From a virus (lineage: Duplodnaviria; Heunggongvirae; Uroviricota; Caudoviricetes), in the IMG/VR virus record IMGVR_UViG_2695420579_000006, positions 1 to 5,378 of that record: a stretch of 5,378 bases of DNA. One strand, given 5' to 3'. Both the position numbers and the translations under genes were made by a program. Below the pieces are notes generated by a model that had not been told where the DNA came from, did no database searches, and saw only the letters and a program-made list of their open reading frames with translations. This document shows, piece after piece, positions 1 through 5,378 of the stretch (positions within the stretch are counted from its first letter, which is position 1; each line of letters begins with the position of its first letter).

Positions 1-58
1 TACTTAAGTATTTTTGATTCTATTCCGGCACCATCTAAAACTTCAAACGCGTTGAAAA

Positions 59-84
59 TAAAAACAAAAACCCGCCGAAGCGGG
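59..84 (-). terminator. Rho-independent terminator at the 3' end of hok-family transcript copy A
   Basis: Minus-strand hairpin CCCGC-UUCG-GCGGG (plus 71-84) followed by a U-run (plus-strand A-run 61-70). Confidence 0.6.
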
Positions 85-154
85 TTAAGTGTGGGTGCAT
101 TGAGGATGCCTGACCCATCAGAGGTGGCGAGGGATTTCTCCCCCGCCTGGTCTC

Positions 155-172
155 TTACTCCTCAGGTTCGTA
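155..172 (-). CDS. hok: 3' fragment of a hok-family toxin gene, HokD/RelF-like C-terminus (...YEPEE, stop at 155-157); the 5' part is lost in the N gap
   Basis: Minus-strand translation of 158-172 gives YEPEE then TAA. The flanking 3' UTR (97-172) is homologous but diverged from the copy B 3' UTR (284-359). Confidence 0.5.
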   Translation of the reverse strand, partial: YEPEE

Positions 173-193
173 NNNNNNNNNNNNNNNNNNNNN
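173..193. other. Assembly gap (21 N); true length and content unknown
   Basis: Run of n characters in the sequence. Confidence 0.95.
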
Positions 194-238
194 CTATCTG
201 CGAAGGTGCGCGAATCAAATTCACCGGAAATAAACAAC

Positions 239-282
239 AAAAAACCCGCCGAAACGCTGAGAGATCACAGCGATGGGCGGGT
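239..282 (-). terminator. Rho-independent terminator of hok mRNA copy B
   Basis: Minus-strand stem CCCGCC(282-277)/GGCGGG(250-245) with an inner CGCUG/CAGCG pairing, followed by a U-run (plus-strand A-run 239-244). Confidence 0.6.
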
Positions 283-353
283 TAAGTGCGGGTGCGTTGA
301 GGATGCCTGACACATCAAAGGTGGCGGGAGATTACTCTCCCGCCTGGTCACTC

Positions 354-509
354 TTACTCTCTAGATTCGTAGTCTACGAAAACAGCGACCTCCGTCTGGC
401 CGATTCGGATTCGTACCTCGCAGAGGTCTTTCCTCGTTACCAGTGCCGTCACTATGACGGTTAAACAGATGACGATCAGGGCGATTAACATCGCCTTTTG
501 CTGCTTCAT
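354..509 (-). CDS. hok: Hok/Gef-family type I toxin (51 aa: MKQQKAMLIALIVICLTVIVTALVTRKDLCEVRIRIGQTEVAVFVDYESRE), copy B
   Basis: Internal ATG at 509-507 of the 70-aa ORF 354-566, preceded by AAGGAGAAG. Strong similarity (from memory) to HokD/HokC: single TM helix and the conserved RKDLCEVRIR...TEVAVF core. Confidence 0.85.
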   Translation of the reverse strand: MKQQKAMLIALIVICLTVIVTALVTRKDLCEVRIRIGQTEVAVFVDYESRE

Positions 510-566
510 AGCCTGCTTCTCCTTGCCTTTCGGCACGTAAGAGGCTAACCTACATTTGTGAGACAT
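354..566 (-). CDS. mok: mok-like reading frame: in-frame 19-codon N-terminal extension of hok (70 aa), copy B
   Basis: ATG at 566-564 with GAGG 10 nt upstream. Its position matches mok of hok/sok loci (and MokC, as I recall it) relative to the sok promoter, which lies inside it. Confidence 0.5.
   Translation of the reverse strand: MSHKCRLASYVPKGKEKQAMKQQKAMLIALIVICLTVIVTALVTRKDLCEVRIRIGQTEVAVFVDYESRE
523..551 (+). promoter_or_regulatory. Predicted sok antisense promoter (-35 TTGCCT 523-528, 17-nt spacer, -10 TAACCT 546-551), copy B
   Basis: Sigma70-like hexamers with 17-nt spacing on the strand antisense to mok/hok. Same position and similar sequence to the plasmid R1 sok promoter as I recall it. 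Confidence 0.5.
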
Positions 567-628
567 AGATTGGGCCTCAGATTAATGTTAAGCGTCTTGC
601 AGGACGCGTAATGTTAACTGGGGCTTTT
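556..628 (+). ncRNA. sok: Predicted Sok-like antisense RNA (about 65-70 nt), copy B; ends approximate
   Basis: Starts just downstream of the predicted promoter and is antisense to the mok start and SD. Ends in a stem GCCUCAG(574-580)/CUGGGGC(615-621, one G-U pair) followed by UUUUCUCU. Confidence 0.5.
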
Positions 629-666
629 CTCTGTCTGCCTTACAGTGACATACCCGAGGCAGACAG

Positions 667-681
667 CCTCAAGCACCCGCA
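667..681 (-). promoter_or_regulatory. Candidate 5' tac-like element of hok mRNA, complementary to the 3' fbi-like element at 287-302
   Basis: Minus-strand 5'-UGCGGGUGCUUGAGG (681-667) is complementary, with one bulged base, to minus-strand CCUCAACGCACCCGCA (302-287) about 380 nt downstream in the same transcript. Confidence 0.45.
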
Positions 682-684
682 GCA

Positions 685-720
685 ATCTTACCGACACCGA
701 TAAGAAAACGCTATTTTTTA
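685..720 (-). promoter_or_regulatory. Approximate hok promoter region, copy B (-10 candidate TAAGAT at 690-685; no clear -35)
   Basis: Position inferred from the predicted 5' end of hok mRNA; the -35 match is poor. Confidence 0.3.
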
Positions 721-847
721 TTGCCAGCACCATCTATCCAGGCTAGTTTATCTGCGTCAGAACGGCGCAATGCGCTCGCCTGAGATACGTTTACTTGCCA
801 TGGTAACAACAGGTAACGGCAATTGCTGTTTCTGTTTTGTTTCCTTC

Positions 848-878
848 AAAAACCCCGGACCATCAATCCGGGGTTTTT
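848..878. terminator. Bidirectional intrinsic terminator between the upstream operon and the hok module, copy B
   Basis: Stem CCCCGGA(853-859)/UCCGGGG(867-873) flanked by an A-run (848-852) and a T-run (874-878). Confidence 0.65.
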
Positions 879-883
879 GTTTG

Positions 884-967
884 TTAACCCCAACGGCAAA
901 TCGAATACACCACCAGCGCCACCGCCATCGCAATTCCTACCGTTGTTAATGCTTCAGGCCAGGTCAT
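884..967 (-). CDS. Conserved 27-aa micro-ORF ([27 protein letters not shown]), predicted small hydrophobic peptide, copy B
   Basis: ATG at 967-965 overlaps the TGA of the 114-aa gene (ATGA). GGAGG lies 10 nt upstream, and the stop sits immediately before the terminator. An identical arrangement occurs in copy C with a different upstream gene. Confidence 0.45.
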
Positions 968-1308
968 CGTAAAATATCCTCCACGCTTATCAGTCCGTTC
1001 CGCTCCAGATAACTCATCGCCTTATCCGGTAATTTGCAGTCTGGCTTCGCTTTCCTCAGTTGCCAGGTTAACTGCTTTACCAGCATGGTTAACTCATCGA
1101 CCAGACGCTGATATCCCACTGGTTTGTATTCATGCAATTTACCGGCTGGCTCTGCTGCCAGCGATACCAGTGCGATTTCCAGAACAGCAATATCCATCTT
1201 ATATGTGCGGATGATGTCATGGTCGATTGTGCCCGGTATGCACAGTCTCTGTGCTTCAATAGTCTCCTCTGCGTGAGCTATTAACTGCTCTCTGGTAAAA
1301 GTCGTCAT
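964..1308 (-). CDS. Hypothetical prophage protein, 114 aa, carrying the shared N-terminal MTTFTREQ...[10 protein letters not shown] module
   Basis: Full ORF with AAGGGG SD 8 nt upstream of the ATG. Start overlaps the stop of the 55-aa ORF (ATGA). Confidence 0.7.
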
Positions 1309-1472
1309 GCCGTAGCCCCTTCTTGATATTTTTCAAACCAGAACACAACCGGCTCTGCTTCCAGCGATGCCAGCGCAATCCGTGCCAGTTCCATTTGTTC
1401 ACCACGGGTAAGCCCGTTTTCAAGCGGGTTTTTAATGAACAATTCAATACGTTCTTTGGTAATAGTGGTCAT
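1305..1472 (-). CDS. 55-aa mosaic ORF: N-terminal module related to the 221-aa gene, C-terminal 16 aa identical to the HNH C-terminus
   Basis: AAGGAG SD then ATG at 1472-1470. The 5' end is near-identical to 4476-4455. The 3' block 1306-1353 is identical to 4474-4521. Confidence 0.55.
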
Positions 1473-1482
1473 GTGTTACTCC

Positions 1483-1681
1483 TTAACCCGCAGTGCTTTC
1501 AACTGATGAGGGGAACAAAATCTTTTCATCAAACCCTGCATTCATATCATGAACAGCAACACACCAATCCATCGACGAACGATTATCAAGAGCCTCCATG
1601 ATTTCATCCATGCGGCGTAGGTCATACAGGTAAATGCTTTTATCGCCAATGGTGTAAAAGCCAATTTTTTTCGGTGATGGA
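1483..1681 (-). pseudogene. 3' remnant (about 66 codons) of a gene interrupted by the IS600-like element
   Basis: The open frame runs from the IS end at 1682 to TAA at 1485-1483. The first 10 codons of the listed 76-aa ORF come from IS terminal sequence. Confidence 0.45.
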
Positions 1682-1724
1682 TGAGGTGTACTGGCAATAG
1701 CGGACACTACCATTTGTTCTTTTT

Positions 1725-2543
1725 TTAAGCAGCCATCTGATGATATTTTTCCCTGAAGGCTGCCGGGGAGATATTCCCCAGACGAGAGTGACGACGCTGA
1801 CGATTGTAGAAAATCTCAATGTATTCCCGTATTACTGAGATGGCTTCATCCCGGTTATTAAAACGATAGTGGCTCAGGCTCTCATTTTTCAGCGTTCCCC
1901 AGAAGCTTTCCATCGGAGCGTTGTCGTAACAGTTACCTTTACGCGACATTGATGTTTTCAGACCAGACTGCTCCTGTATGACCCGGTAATCGTATGCGCA
2001 GTACTGTGAACCTCGATCAGAGTGGTGGATTAGCCCGGCAGGTGGGCGCTGGCTCCTGAGCGCCATAAACAGGGCTTTACCTGTCAGCTCTTTTGTCATG
2101 CGCTCTCCCATGGCGTAGCCGACAATTTCGCACGTATAAACATCTTTGATGCCAGCGAGGTACAACCATCCCTCCTGTGTGGCAACATACGTCAGGTCCG
2201 CCACCCAGACCTGATTTGGTGCTGTAGGAGCGAACGTCTGGTTCAGCAGATTTGGCGCAACTGGCAGATTGTGGTTCGAGTTCGTAGTCGCTCTGAACTT
2301 GCGTTTCTGCTTACAGCGTAGCCTTAGCTCCTTACGAAGACGTGCCAGTCGGTCACGACCAACGATGATGCCATTCTCTGCCAGCTCCGTCTGGAGCCGC
2401 CGGGTTCCATATGTTTCGCGAGTGCGGATATGTGCCACCTTAATCTCCAGTTTTAGCCGCTCATCACTTTGTTTTCTGTCTGAGGGTTCATGCTGTACCC
2501 AGTTGTAATAACCGCTCCTGGATACACCAAATACCTGACACAT
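1725..2543 (-). CDS. insB: IS3-family transposase OrfB (272 aa from the first ATG; frame stays open upstream into the frameshift window)
   Basis: Protein carries the rve/DDE integrase core (from memory). It is in the -1 frame relative to orfA. Confidence 0.9.
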   Translation of the reverse strand: MCQVFGVSRSGYYNWVQHEPSDRKQSDERLKLEIKVAHIRTRETYGTRRLQTELAENGIIVGRDRLARLRKELRLRCKQKRKFRATTNSNHNLPVAPNLLNQTFAPTAPNQVWVADLTYVATQEGWLYLAGIKDVYTCEIVGYAMGERMTKELTGKALFMALRSQRPPAGLIHHSDRGSQYCAYDYRVIQEQSGLKTSMSRKGNCYDNAPMESFWGTLKNESLSHYRFNNRDEAISVIREYIEIFYNRQRRHSRLGNISPAAFREKYHQMAA

Positions 2544-2578
2544 CGCTTCAATGGGAAATTGTTGTCGCCATTGTTCGA

Positions 2579-2819
2579 TTAACGCGTATTTTTCAGCGAC
2601 TCCTGTGCAAAATACGCTGTTGCTTTTTTTAATATATCTCGCTCAAGGCGAGCTTCATTTAACGCCTTACGCAGTTGCAGAATTTCAGATTCCAGTTCAG
2701 CCACCGTGCGGGAACCAGGAGTACCGAGCCCTTTTCTGGCGGCGGTAACCCATTGTCCTAAAGTGCCTTCAGGAAGAGATAATCGGGAAGCGCCTTCACT
2801 GATCGAAAGTTGATTTTCA
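2579..2819 (-). CDS. insA: IS3-family transposase OrfA, 5'-truncated (residues ~22-100; helix-turn-helix and leucine-zipper region)
   Basis: Translation ENQLSISEGASRLSLPEGTLGQWV...ILKKATAYFAQESLKNTR matches IS600 OrfA as I recall it. The native start codon is absent. Confidence 0.8.
2584..2630 (-). promoter_or_regulatory. Programmed -1 ribosomal frameshift site (A AAA AAA G at 2630-2624) with downstream 9-bp stem (2618-2610 / 2592-2584) producing OrfAB
   Basis: A heptanucleotide run of A in the orfA zero frame. The -1 frame is continuous into orfB. The stem GCGUAUUUU/AAAAUACGC begins about 6 nt downstream. Confidence 0.6.
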
Positions 2820-2820
2820 N
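2820..2820. other. Single ambiguous base at the junction between the truncated IS and the hok copy C 3' region
   Basis: IS orfA homology ends at 2819; hok-module homology (equivalent to 339 onward) begins at 2821. Confidence 0.9.
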
Positions 2821-2835
2821 CCCGCCTGGTCACTC

Positions 2836-2991
2836 TTACTCTCTAGATTCGTAGTCTACGAAAACAGCGACCTCCGTCTGGCCGATTCGGATTCGTACCT
2901 CGCAGAGGTCTTTCCTCGTTACCAGTGCCGTCACAATGACGGTTAAACAGATGACGATCAGGGCGATTAACATCGCCTTTTGCTGCTTCAT
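2836..2991 (-). CDS. hok: Hok/Gef-family type I toxin, copy C (identical protein to copy B)
   Basis: Same as copy B, offset +2482. It differs by one synonymous third-position change (ATA to ATT, Ile, at 2935). Confidence 0.85.
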   Translation of the reverse strand: MKQQKAMLIALIVICLTVIVTALVTRKDLCEVRIRIGQTEVAVFVDYESRE

Positions 2992-3048
2992 AGCCTGCTT
3001 CTCCTTGCCTTTCGGCACGTAAGAGGCTAACCTACATTTGTGAGACAT
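2836..3048 (-). CDS. mok: mok-like in-frame extended reading frame, copy C
   Basis: Identical to copy B at offset +2482. Confidence 0.5.
   Translation of the reverse strand: MSHKCRLASYVPKGKEKQAMKQQKAMLIALIVICLTVIVTALVTRKDLCEVRIRIGQTEVAVFVDYESRE
3005..3033 (+). promoter_or_regulatory. Predicted sok promoter, copy C (-35 TTGCCT 3005-3010, -10 TAACCT 3028-3033)
   Basis: Identical to copy B at offset +2482. Confidence 0.5.
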
Positions 3049-3110
3049 AGATTGGGCCTCAGATTAATGTTAAGCGTCTTGCAGGACGCGTAATGTTAAC
3101 TGGGGCTTTT
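3038..3110 (+). ncRNA. sok: Predicted Sok-like antisense RNA, copy C; ends approximate
   Basis: Identical to copy B at offset +2482. Confidence 0.5.
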
Positions 3111-3329
3111 CTCTGTCTGCCTTACAGTGACATACCCGAGGCAGACAGCCTCAAGCACCCGCAGCAATCTTACCGACACCGATAAGAAAACGCTATTTTT
3201 TATTGCCAGCACCATCTATCCAGGCTAGTTTATCTGCGTCAGAACGGCGCAATGCGCTCGCCTGAGATACGTTTACTTGCCATGGTAACAACAGGTAACG
3301 GCAATTGCTGTTTCTGTTTTGTTTCCTTC

Positions 3330-3360
3330 AAAAACCCCGGACCATCAATCCGGGGTTTTT
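3330..3360. terminator. Bidirectional intrinsic terminator, copy C
   Basis: Identical hairpin to 848-878. Confidence 0.65.
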
Positions 3361-3365
3361 GTTTG

Positions 3366-3449
3366 TTAACCCCAACGGCAAATCGAATACACCACCAGCG
3401 CCACCGCCATCGCAATTCCTACCGTGGTGAATGCCTCAGGCCAGGTCAT
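3366..3449 (-). CDS. Conserved 27-aa micro-ORF, copy C ([27 protein letters not shown])
   Basis: ATG at 3449-3447 overlaps the TGA of the DUF551-like gene (ATGA), with AGGAGG 7 nt upstream. The three differences from copy B are all at codon third positions. Confidence 0.45.
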   Translation of the reverse strand: MTWPEAFTTVGIAMAVALVVYSICRWG

Positions 3450-3811
3450 TGATTCACCTCCTGCGGTGGTTCCGGTAGCGGCATCCAGTGAGTTGAGCTC
3501 TCTACTTCAACGCCGTCTTTGTCCACAAAAGCCATCTTATTCCCGCCACGAGTGGGGCAAAAAACCTTATCCCAGGAACCGGGGAATACATTCCCGAGAT
3601 CATCGAGAAGAATCACATCGCAATATTCAGCAGGAACTGCATCACTACAGCTTATCCAGCCAGCCGGAGCTACCGGAGAGTTGCCAGCCTTACGCATGGC
3701 CATTTCCACGATTTCAACCATATCTCCTGGTGGAATTTTACAAAGTTGCCCAATACATTTCTGCTGCCTGGCATATTCGAGAATGTGCTCCAGTTTGGTT
3801 CGATTAATCAT
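3446..3811 (-). CDS. Prophage protein, 121 aa, DUF551-like (C-terminal THWMPLPEPP motif)
   Basis: Full ORF with GGGAG SD. Start overlaps the stop of the 221-aa gene (TAATG). The DUF551 call rests on the recalled C-terminal motif only. Confidence 0.65.
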   Translation of the reverse strand: MINRTKLEHILEYARQQKCIGQLCKIPPGDMVEIVEMAMRKAGNSPVAPAGWISCSDAVPAEYCDVILLDDLGNVFPGSWDKVFCPTRGGNKMAFVDKDGVEVESSTHWMPLPEPPQEVNQ

Positions 3812-4476
3812 TATTTATCTCCCTTAAGCATGGCAGCGCGGCAGGCGTTCCAGCCATCAACATAATCAAACGTATTACTATCGTTTGGCCCGATTTCATC
3901 CGGCACTATCGGCTCTGGTTGGATAGTGACGTTGGCAAAGGCAGCACGCAAACCGGTTTTAATTTCTTCGATTTCATCAGAGCCAAGCGATGAATCTGAC
4001 AGTGCGTGATGGAATGCGTAAGCCATGTCGTCGTTTACTGCAACCGGCACTGCCGGCGCTGCGTAAAGCGGTGTTATATCTGCCCGAAAATCACATGCTT
4101 TATGCAGTCGTACCCAACACTCAACTTCCGCTTTGTCAAAATATATAGCAGTGAACGTATTAGATTCCTGGTCAACTTGAGTAAACGTCACCTTCCACGC
4201 TACAGCTACGGCTTTCCATCCATCAGGTTGTCGCATTCGCGGGGCAGCATAAAGCTCATGCATTCCATCAGGCAGCGAGTGACCCACATACTCACCGAAC
4301 CCGTCAATACACATGCCCCCATCTTCAACAATGCATTCCGCTACAGGCTCTGCTTCCAGTGATGCCAGAGCGATAAGCGCCAGTTCACGAATTTCACCGC
4401 CGTCTATATCGTCAATATCATCGCGGCCAGAAATGTTAGCCAGCCATTGCAGTCGCTCTTTGGTAATAGTGGTCAT
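3811..4476 (-). CDS. Hypothetical prophage protein, 221 aa, with the shared N-terminal module (MTTITKER...[10 protein letters not shown]) and two LYAAP motifs
   Basis: Full ORF with AAGGGG SD 8 nt upstream. Start overlaps the HNH stop (ATGA). Confidence 0.75.
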   Translation of the reverse strand: MTTITKERLQWLANISGRDDIDDIDGGEIRELALIALASLEAEPVAECIVEDGGMCIDGFGEYVGHSLPDGMHELYAAPRMRQPDGWKAVAVAWKVTFTQVDQESNTFTAIYFDKAEVECWVRLHKACDFRADITPLYAAPAVPVAVNDDMAYAFHHALSDSSLGSDEIEEIKTGLRAAFANVTIQPEPIVPDEIGPNDSNTFDYVDGWNACRAAMLKGDK

Positions 4477-4838
4477 GCCGTAGCCCCTTCTTGATATTTT
4501 TCAAACCAGAACACAACCGGGTCAGATTTCATTTCAACCAATCCCATACGAACCAGCGCTTTGCCTTTCCCGGACGCAAGGAATTCACGACGACCATCAC
4601 TGATAATTCGTCGATAATCTTCCAGGCTACTGCAATGCTTGTGCAGATTGCATGGGTGGCATGCTGGTACCATGTTGGATATATCGTCACGTTCCTGGTG
4701 AAGCATATTTCCATCAAAACGAATGACCGGTTTTACATGGTCTGCATGCCACTTTTCGCCAAGTTCGCAGCCGCAATAAGCGCAGCGACCACCGAACTTC
4801 ATGCGCAGTTCTGCACGTTGTTTTTTCGTCAGTGCCAT
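4473..4838 (-). CDS. HNH endonuclease, 121 aa from the internal ATG at 4838
   Basis: HNH signature CAYCGC...WHADHVKP...ACHPCNLHKH. The start is chosen at MALTKKQ, with AAGGAAA upstream and 1 nt after the stop of the 72-aa ORF. The longer 151-aa frame would overlap that ORF. Confidence 0.8.
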   Translation of the reverse strand: MALTKKQRAELRMKFGGRCAYCGCELGEKWHADHVKPVIRFDGNMLHQERDDISNMVPACHPCNLHKHCSSLEDYRRIISDGRREFLASGKGKALVRMGLVEMKSDPVVFWFEKYQEGATA

Positions 4839-4839
4839 A

Positions 4840-5058
4840 TCAGCTTTCCTTATACGGATTAATTTTATTGTGCAGTGTGTTGAATGACGCCCATACCACG
4901 TCGTTATACAATTCAATAACTGGCTCAATTATTTTTCCGATTATCCAGACAAAAATTAGCGGGGATATCGGTGTCATCAACACGATAAACAGAATGAGAA
5001 ACAGGAATTCTGTTGTTCTACTCTTTCGCGGATATTTTTTTCTAAATAATGTAACCAT
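4840..5058 (-). CDS. Small membrane protein, 72 aa: basic N-terminus, one long hydrophobic segment; sits in a locally AT-rich segment
   Basis: ORF MVTLFRKKYPRKSRTTEFLFLILFIVLMTPISPLIFVWIIG.... Stop is 1 nt before the HNH start. The leader is structured (see hairpin feature). Confidence 0.5.
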   Translation of the reverse strand: MVTLFRKKYPRKSRTTEFLFLILFIVLMTPISPLIFVWIIGKIIEPVIELYNDVVWASFNTLHNKINPYKES

Positions 5059-5064
5059 TCATTA

Positions 5065-5086
5065 CCGCCCTTTCGGGCGGTCTCCT
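5065..5086 (-). promoter_or_regulatory. Leader hairpin CCGCCC-GAAA-GGGCGG (5080-5065) between an AGGAG (5086-5082) and the ATG of the 72-aa ORF
   Basis: Perfect 6-bp GC-rich stem with a GNRA tetraloop. The AGGAG is 23 nt from the ATG in linear sequence but about 7 nt if the hairpin is formed. Confidence 0.4.
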
Positions 5087-5150
5087 GATGATTTGAGGGT
5101 GCAGAAATCCCTCCGGTTAAGGATTAAATTTTTAACAGTGCTAAATTTAA

Positions 5151-5378
5151 TTATTCAGTTCTGGATTTTGTCGCCCTGCGTATCCGCGCTTTCGCGTTAC
5201 GCTCAATCTGTATCAGCTTTTCTATATTTCTCCGCCTTTCCTGTTCCTCCTGGCGCAATAGCCTTACATCATCTGCCAGTCTGGTTTCTCTTTTTGCCAC
5301 AGAGAGCATCCAGTCAAACGGCTCCACAACCGCACCGCAGATTTTACAGCGGACCTGACGCTCTTTTTCGTCAACCCG
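5151..5378 (-). CDS. 3' portion (75 codons) of an unidentified gene running off the right edge; contains CKICG and a basic, coiled-coil-like C-terminus
   Basis: Minus-strand frame is open from the window edge to TAA at 5153-5151 (...RVDEKERQVRCKICGAVVEPFDWMLSVAKRE...ARIRRATKSRTE). Not in the ORF track because the start lies outside the window. Confidence 0.4.
   Translation of the reverse strand, partial: RVDEKERQVRCKICGAVVEPFDWMLSVAKRETRLADDVRLLRQEEQERRRNIEKLIQIERNAKARIRRATKSRTE

Follow-up and report, generated by a model that had tools for sequence, protein, structure and literature searches.

How can a ribosome start on a gene whose Shine-Dalgarno (SD) sequence lies 23 nt from the AUG, with a perfect GC-rich hairpin standing between the two? 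This question is raised by a 72-aa open reading frame (ORF) in a stretch of Caudoviricetes DNA of 5,378 nt (IMG/VR record IMGVR_UViG_2695420579_000006, positions 1 to 5,378), which was analysed over its whole length and is called the window here. The genes of the window lie on the minus strand and correspond to the early region of a Rac/Qin-like lambdoid prophage, and the ORF in question is a member of the Pfam family DUF4014. We propose, with a probability of about 0.5, that the SD and the hairpin form a split ribosome-binding site similar to those of genes 38 and 25 of phage T4, and that the same short sequence may act as a conserved boundary sequence for mosaic gene exchange. The element would then be a portable intercistronic translation-start unit on the early mRNA of prophages.

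Read on the minus strand, the SD (AGGAG, 5082..5086; AGGAGG in most copies of the element) is separated from the AUG by 23 nt and from the stem by 1 nt. The hairpin (5065..5080) consists of CCGCCC (5080-5075), a GAAA loop (5074-5071) and GGGCGG (5070-5065), and is followed by the spacer UAAUGA (5059..5064), which holds no SD and leads directly to the AUG. An earlier note on this DNA had described these three parts, and each was found in its place. U5064 can additionally pair with A5081 as a seventh stem pair; across the copies, G or A precedes the stem and U nearly always follows it. A folding energy of -12.4 kcal/mol was calculated for the 16-nt hairpin, and one of -18.2 kcal/mol for the 52-nt start region, as compared to -8.4 ± 2.4 kcal/mol for shuffled sequences (z = -4.1; 0 of 200 as good). 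Perfect GC-rich 6-bp hairpins gave five matches in the window, two of them being this hairpin, against 0.41 ± 0.69 in shuffled sequences. The main hairpin is far beyond chance. The SD is predicted to be unpaired with a probability of 0.93-0.99, whereas the 3' arm of the hairpin is predicted to be fully paired (probability of being unpaired 0.00 in the window variant).

The proposed layout is thus a free SD (R-GGAG-G/A), a stable GC hairpin of 6-7 bp, 6-9 A/U-rich nt and the AUG. By looping out 16-18 nt, the hairpin would bring an SD that is 23-26 nt away to an effective distance of 5-9 nt from the AUG; in the window the 23 nt would become 7 nt, or 5 nt if A5081 pairs with U5064. As the hairpin would bridge the SD to the AUG, the downstream ORF, here DUF4014, would need no SD of its own. 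The linear spacing of 23-26 nt exceeds the limit of about 15 nt, the stem-loop lies wholly between the SD and the AUG with the SD 0-1 nt from the stem, and, with the exception of one gene family described below, no other SD is present at a normal distance. The earlier note had offered two mechanisms, and the comparative data agree best with the one in which the hairpin moves a remote SD into register, given the unpaired SD, the paired 3' arm, the SD-less spacer and a geometry like that of T4 gene 38.

For T4 gene 38 the distance of 22 nt between SD and AUG is shortened by a hairpin to 5 nt, and for gene 25 that of 27 nt to 11 nt; translation drops when the hairpin is destabilised by mutation, and an enhancing effect of the structure on initiation was established by mutations together with structure probing (Nivinskas et al. 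1999; Malys and Nivinskas 2009; reviewed in PMC3014915). The element described here is similar in that a stable hairpin lies wholly between the AUG and an SD that is too distant (22 and 27 nt in T4, 23-26 nt here), and in that the effective spacing of 5-9 nt lies in the functional range, as do the 5 and 11 nt of T4. However, each T4 hairpin belongs to a single gene junction and was proven by mutation and probing, whereas here one nearly invariant sequence stands before at least five unrelated genes in temperate prophages; the T4 hairpins and this one have no sequence similarity. The split ribosome-binding site of E. coli thrS (Sacerdot et al.; discussed in PMC3936740) similarly shows a folded hairpin accommodated by the ribosome between two single-stranded parts of the binding site, but there the hairpin is a regulatory operator bound by ThrRS and is located upstream of the SD.

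The portability of the element was followed in a survey of 180 distinct IMG/VR contexts, which have in common a core of about 29 nt, TC-RGGAGG-CCGCCCGAAAGGGCGG-UAR. No ORF of at least 40 aa was present behind the core in 25 of the 180 contexts. In the other 155 the distance from the end of the stem to the start codon was 6 nt (59 contexts), 7 nt (53), 9 nt (30), 11 nt (9), 8 nt (1) or 2 nt (3), so that 142 of the 155 start 6, 7 or 9 nt past the stem. At least five unrelated ORF families stand behind the cassette, namely DUF7167 (60 aa), DUF4014, MTELT/MAELT (proteins of 92-277 aa, some with DUF551), MQDIK/MQEIK and MEITK/MGITK. The spacers found (UAAUGA, UAAGAA, UAGUUAA, UAAUGAAAA and UAAUAAAUA) are all without an SD, and those of 6-9 nt pair with the anti-SD at -3.1 to -3.6 kcal/mol as compared to -7.4 kcal/mol (window) to -10.3 kcal/mol (majority form) for the upstream SD. 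Only the MEITK/MGITK genes have their own GGAG, 6 nt before the AUG and behind the hairpin. Judged by these contexts, the SD and the hairpin together are a cassette of about 30 nt and not a property of the DUF4014 gene. A general design of SD, hairpin and ATG was considered and rejected, as 2 Mb of related prophage DNA holds only this cassette family with such a layout. A search across IMG/VR with the loose pattern GGAGNCCGCCNNNNNGGCGGT returned GC-rich coding noise only.

The DUF4014 genes that lack the cassette form the natural counterpart. Every one of them (18 contexts plus further contigs) starts with AAAGGAGAGTGAT-RTG or a close variant of it, that is, with a canonical SD at 6 nt, and they lie behind at least five different and unrelated upstream genes. 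Phage 933W is homologous to the window from the start codon onwards; this codon is a GTG, placed 1 nt past the upstream stop codon and behind AAGGAG. The AAAGGAGAGTGAT-RTG junction suggests, on sequence comparison, that conserved junction sequences are a general feature of these regions. The idea of the earlier note that the hairpin gives translational control of a potentially toxic membrane protein finds no support as a gene-specific role, since the 933W-type DUF4014 gene has no hairpin and a canonical AAGGAG 6 nt upstream, and since an identical cassette heads unrelated non-membrane genes (DUF7167 and DUF551-type). The downstream genes are themselves constrained. Diversity at codon positions 1, 2 and 3 was 0.074, 0.049 and 0.131 for DUF4014, and the lower values at positions 1 and 2 indicate constraint at the protein level and hence a real gene; for DUF7167 the values were 0.013, 0.020 and 0.121. 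Because both of these cassette-linked families are constrained as proteins, they must be translated. The anatomy and the portability of the element, the lack of a local SD behind the cassette, the canonical SD where the cassette is absent and this protein-level constraint are thus observed, whereas the use of the upstream SD by ribosomes across the hairpin and the occurrence of recombination within the cassette are inferred.

The core was present in 2,618 of 5,426 complete E. coli genomes (about half), at 4,725 places and with up to eight copies per genome. Twenty-one phage records carry the cassette, including Rac-type phages, mEp460, ArgO145 and other Stx2a phages; HK620, lambda and P22 are not among these 21. 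Among 185,579 species representatives the cassette was found only in E. coli and Shigella, plus one evidently contaminated metagenome-assembled genome (MAG). The latter is JAIHTM010000290.1, a 3-kb contig of a 'Collinsella sp.' MAG, which holds an E. coli prophage leader, the cassette and DUF7167 and is probably contamination. Similarly, the record PP818812.1 ('Actinobacillus phage vB_Apl-pPE4') contains DUF4014, a hok gene, a leader of the E. coli type and the cassette, which matches the 33-nt majority form of the core at 100%; the record resembles a Rac-like phage of E. coli, and its host assignment may be wrong.

The remaining matches among the species representatives were ordinary terminators, in which a T run comes after the same stem. 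As in Rho-independent terminators, an identical ACCGCC(C/T)GAAAGGGCGGT hairpin occurs in contigs of Chloracidobacterium, Dysosmobacter, Saccharibacteria and Anaerotignum, but these copies continue with the T run where the cassette continues with UAAUGA-AUG. An intrinsic terminator was therefore rejected for the window: the GC-rich hairpin is there, but no T run follows it on either strand.

Conservation of the hairpin was high. The exact sequence was found in 118 of 166 independent contexts (71%), and the commonest stem variants are C-to-U changes that keep pairing as G.U in the mRNA sense (12, 8 and 3 contexts). One haplotype is fully compensated (CCACCC/GGGTGG), and two G.U pairs are present in the CTGCTC/GGGCGG stem of a DUF4014 relative with 76% identity. 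The loop is mostly GAAA but not strictly GNRA, as GGAA, GGCA, UAAA, AAAA and GUCA also occur. In the DUF4014 contexts the diversity of the stem (0.022) and of the loop (0.011) was below that of the adjacent codon position 2, and the stem value is also far lower than the synonymous diversity (0.131).

Several observations speak against the split-site reading. Stem variants that disrupt pairing occur too, such as CCACCC/GGGCGG, and the 19 variant hairpin haplotypes had a mean folding energy of -8.03 kcal/mol, as compared to -8.21 ± 0.58 kcal/mol for random substitutions of the same type (P = 0.61). In the DUF7167 contexts the stem diversity of 0.089 is close to that of synonymous sites (0.121). 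The hairpin is kept before the MEITK/MGITK genes, where their own GGAG makes bridging unnecessary. The predicted fold of the window variant pairs the AUG with an upstream CAU (probability of being unpaired 0.46/0.02/0.00), which would hinder initiation rather than help it; this pairing is not common to the other variants. The range is limited to Escherichia and Shigella, so the conservation of the sequence may mirror recent spread. RNAalifold on 81 leader haplotypes gave no usable covariation, because these haplotypes are too similar. Divergence is low and covariation too sparse for proof, so that the comparisons no more than suggest selection on the RNA fold.

In another explanation the hairpin would be mainly a stabiliser or insulator of the mRNA. 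It would act as a barrier to an exonuclease or RNase E, or shield the start region from upstream sequence, and initiation would be SD-independent on A/U-rich sequence (S1-assisted) or would follow occasional melting of the stem. The retention of the hairpin before genes with their own SD would be understandable in this way, as would the A/U-rich spacers, and the use of the same hairpin with a T run as a terminator in unrelated bacteria marks it as a generic stable module; in addition, selection on the bridging geometry has no statistical support beyond the spacing. Against it stand the perfect AGGAGG conserved 0-1 nt from the stem, the start of all SD-less families 6-9 nt past it, and the canonical SD that DUF4014 takes exactly when the cassette is absent. 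We regard this explanation as possible but rather unlikely.

The earlier note's second mechanism was that the hairpin sequesters an AAGGG element resembling an SD. In this model the 3' arm would hide the SD-like AAGGGCGG, so that translation would be low by default and would rise on opening of the stem, for example by a ribosome terminating on a 70-aa upstream ORF. Sequestration is possible: AAGGGCGGU, located 6-9 nt before the AUG, could form a duplex of -8.3 kcal/mol with the anti-SD, and in one of the two types of left flank a stop codon lies 4 nt before the SD, where a terminating ribosome would cover the 5' arm. The energetics disfavour it, however, as opening of the stem costs 12.4 kcal/mol for a duplex of -8.3 kcal/mol and the 3' arm is predicted never to be free. 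Moreover, a stronger and free SD adjoins the stem, and where the leader is present about 90 nt separate the element from the closest stop codon upstream. Sequestration of this kind seems improbable.

A GC stem with a GAAA loop also resembles the core of lambda boxB, GCCC-GAAAA-GGGC. The hairpin might accordingly be an RNA operator of the lambda boxB or coat-protein type, bound by a phage protein that co-regulates accessory genes or antitermination. Its presence in both leftward (mEp460, ArgO145) and rightward early regions and its copy number of up to eight per genome would suit such a role. The likeness to boxB is limited to the presence, on an early transcript of a phage, of a GC stem that is closed by a GNRA-type loop; the cassette has a tetraloop instead of a pentaloop, the loop is variable, and the element is located at a start codon deep in the operon, always bound to that position and far from early promoters. 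No boxA-like sequence lies nearby on the sense strand, and no Rfam family matched: none of the covariance models of Rfam 15, searched at E ≤ 1, gave a hit overlapping 4840-5160, and in the window only sok passed the threshold. We consider an operator very unlikely. A lambda-type nut site was rejected as well, since the minus strand around 5059-5160 has no boxA-like match and the element is located past the replication genes.

The second half of the proposal concerns the place of the cassette in the genome. Its left flank is of two kinds, either a conserved leader of about 95 nt or the end of a 70-aa gene, with UGUC after its stop codon, and each of them joins at least three of the right-hand gene families; some prophages carry two cassettes, one with each kind of flank, 1,064 nt apart. 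Two left flanks and at least five right-hand families are thus arranged around the core of about 29 nt. Since this core stands between different genes in many prophages, it would provide a short patch of identity for recombination, and homologous (Red/RecT-type) recombination would reassort the genes on its two sides. The minimal pairing segment is 23-27 bp for Red-beta and 31-34 bp for RecA (PMC3945230); the core is longer than the former and shorter than the latter. Boundary sequences at the mosaic junctions of lambdoid phages have been discussed before (Susskind and Botstein 1978; for HK620, Clark et al. 2001; both as cited in PMC3233612). The cassette resembles them as a short conserved intergenic stretch with interchangeable modules on both sides, and differs from them in that it also bears an SD and a hairpin. 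By analogy and sequence comparison, the element most likely functions as the split initiation regions of T4 do, while its position is that of a lambdoid boundary sequence; as a split ribosome-binding site it would be notable for being portable and placed at a mosaic junction. A role of the cassette as the homing target of the neighbouring HNH gene was rejected, because most copies have no HNH gene nearby.

The conserved leader in the window was compared with that of its relatives. Its left part ('part A', 5119..5158, minus strand) begins with CTGAATAATTAA (5158-5147), which places a stop codon in all three frames and is kept behind several different upstream genes. It also contains the inverted repeat TTAAATTT (5150-5143) / AAATTTAA (5131-5124). 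Further towards the cassette, a second stem of 5 bp (5095..5113; GAGGG at 5113-5109, CCCUC at 5099-5095, 9-nt loop) is present as the earlier note had said, but it is weak alone (-5.8 kcal/mol, z = -1.9); its 5' arm lies inside CCGGAGGG (5116-5109). In relatives such as SC418 and L220 the GGAGG of CCGGAGGG is the SD of a 70-aa ORF (MSNTQKIIN...) that starts 7 nt on, and the hairpin cassette comes after the stop codon of this ORF. The leader in the window shares both ends with that module and has 24 nt in place of the ORF. The full leader accordingly looks like an internal-deletion derivative of the 70-aa-gene module, and the second stem is, on this comparison, probably a relic SD plus CCCUC. 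The CCCUC arm resembles an anti-SD. The AT-only inverted repeat (TTAAATTT-N11-AAATTTAA, minus strand 5124-5150) folds no better than shuffled sequences, and one of its pairs flips between A-T and T-A in 15 of the 81 leader haplotypes; binding of a protein or a contribution to a weak promoter are conceivable roles. The UAA behind the hairpin was also considered as the end of a leader peptide, which was rejected because the frame is open but holds no ATG, GTG or TTG.

The history of the leader and the reassortment of flanks on both sides could also be explained if the cassette were a neutral boundary sequence or recombination scar, kept uniform by recent spread and homogenising recombination and with no selected RNA function. 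The limited host range, the identical hairpin in 71% of the contexts, the permutation result (P = 0.61), the resemblance of the full leader to a deletion derivative and the existence of other conserved junctions in the region (AAAGGAGAGTGAT-RTG and a 77-nt repeat) would all fit, and the finding would then be an ordinary one. Against this, the SD-less downstream genes are under purifying selection and so need some start signal, and stem and loop vary less than codon position 2 in the DUF4014 contexts. We therefore think a purely neutral scar unlikely. A more far-reaching variant of our proposal is that the cassette and the all-frame stop cluster CTGAATAATTAA evolved as a 'plug-and-play' adaptor in Rac-like and other lambdoid prophages, which would allow expression of ORFs without a ribosome-binding site and offer a patch of homology, or a hairpin-forming DNA site, for ORF exchange. 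Such a natural gene-cassette system would be loosely like integron attC sites, but would operate via homologous recombination and translation. We put this forward as speculation with a low chance of being correct.

If the split-site reading is true, temperate coliphages would provide a second natural system for a mechanism documented mainly at two T4 genes, and the first case of one start module common to several unrelated genes. It would account for the expression of small accessory genes that lack a ribosome-binding site of their own within the hypervariable early regions of these prophages, which about half of the sequenced E. coli carry and which include Shiga toxin (Stx) phages. It would also offer a tangible case of phage mosaicism arising by the 'boundary sequence' route, which has long been debated. 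Gene callers and start predictors based on ribosome-binding sites would be expected to misjudge starts behind the cassette, which is also a compact candidate part for insulated expression.

The earlier note had also taken the AT-rich surroundings of the 72-aa ORF as a sign of a separately acquired moron. A locally AT-rich patch is indeed visible in the composition profile along the window (GC 0.33-0.39 across 4850-5050, about 0.48 elsewhere), and the ORF has a GC content of 0.356 as compared to 0.483 for the window. However, its GC content at third codon positions (GC3) of 0.425 is similar to that of its neighbours (HNH 0.431, 221-aa ORF 0.428, DUF551 0.459), and the low GC sits in codon positions 1 and 2 because the protein is rich in Ile, Leu, Phe, Lys and Asn. 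As GC3 is not deviant, the composition is no proof of foreign origin, and AT-richness as a mark of it was dropped. The promoter scan found no sigma-70 consensus on the minus strand and a single site in all against 1.6 expected (plus strand, 4884-4912, within the 72-aa ORF), and no terminator-like site was found between 4400 and 5378. With neither promoter nor terminator found, and with the gene packed 1 nt from the HNH start, the DUF4014 gene is not a moron; it is clearly a mosaic module that occurs in several contexts, but it is not autonomous.

An autonomous unit could still be imagined. It would be a moron whose own promoter lies in the AT-rich leader, where a weak TTAAAT-16-TTTAAT match was noted by reading the sequence, or else a type I toxin with an antisense RNA that ends at the hairpin on the plus strand. 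The plus-strand promoter-like site inside the ORF and the small, hydrophobic nature of the DUF4014 protein would be in its favour. The scan results given above, the missing T run behind the hairpin on either strand, the ordinary GC3, the position of the 933W gene 1 nt from both of its neighbours and the use of the cassette by unrelated genes make this extremely unlikely.

The DUF4014 gene itself (4840..5058, minus strand; ATG 5058-5056, TGA 4842-4840) matched the Pfam family over residues 1-71 (E = 1.3e-25, 90 bits, cut-off 23.2). As profile positions 1-71 of 72 are covered, it is a full-length member, like L0067 of 933W, and it also matched PHROG 1832 (E = 1.5e-44). The family is narrow, with 127 clusters that are each at least 61% identical and come from Escherichia, Shigella or Salmonella throughout. 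The protein has a basic N-terminus (net charge +5) followed by one long kinked hydrophobic helix: Kyte-Doolittle hydropathy in 19-residue windows reached 2.68 across residues 18-44, a stretch of 27 residues, and the AlphaFold model predicts helices at 14-28 and 31-66 (mean predicted local distance difference test score 81) with a kink at the conserved TPISP motif. Hydropathy, the basic N-terminus and the modelled helices thus point to a small membrane protein, in line with the earlier note. Some database entries name DUF4014 proteins 'sugar/O-polysaccharide acetyltransferase inhibitor', and the label given to PHROG 1832 is 'released from the phage upon host infection'; neither function name had traceable support in the literature search. 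No paper naming DUF4014 or the hairpin sequence was found in the literature searched, the HK620 boundary-sequence paper lying outside its coverage.

The gene order around the leader is a 118-aa ORF, the leader, DUF4014, HNH, a 221-aa ORF, DUF551 and hok/sok. The upstream ORF is represented by its 3' part (5151..5378, minus strand), continues past the window, has 118 aa in the complete genome and gave a weak zinc-ribbon match; the HNH endonuclease gene (4473..4838, minus strand) has its ATG 1 nt past the stop codon of DUF4014. Positions 5030-5165 are 100% identical to E. coli FDAARGOS_944, where replication genes (YdaU, an ATP-binding protein, DUF977) lie on the 5' side and hok, DUF1367, DUF1364, a Q-like DUF1133 gene, tRNAs and a holin gene on the 3' side. 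The leftward early region is where DUF4014 or the cassette lies in mEp460 and in the Stx-type phages 933W and ArgO145.

Some further repeats were observed in the window. The 77-nt direct repeat (91% identical) lies at two gene junctions, 1287-1363 and 4455-4531, and is a second conserved junction sequence of the region; it codes a common C-terminal tail, and the ATG of the next gene (MTTITKER...) overlaps the stop codon. The hok/sok locus is present in two identical copies (339-950 and 2821-3430), with hok ORFs at 354-566 and 2836-3048 and sok (RF01794) at 504-678 and 2986-3160. Between them lie an IS3-family element (ORFs 1725-2543 and 2579-2833) and three small ORFs, and runs of N occur at 173-193 and 2820. 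As the matching complete genome has a single hok after DUF551, the window represents either a different arrangement or a masked or composite assembly. An isrK-like match at 65-146 was weak and under the gathering score. Finally, terminator-like hairpins on the minus strand at 61-90 and 236-290, for example AACCCGC-UUCG-GCGGGUU followed by T runs, lie within a 76-nt repeat found at 80-155 and 277-352.

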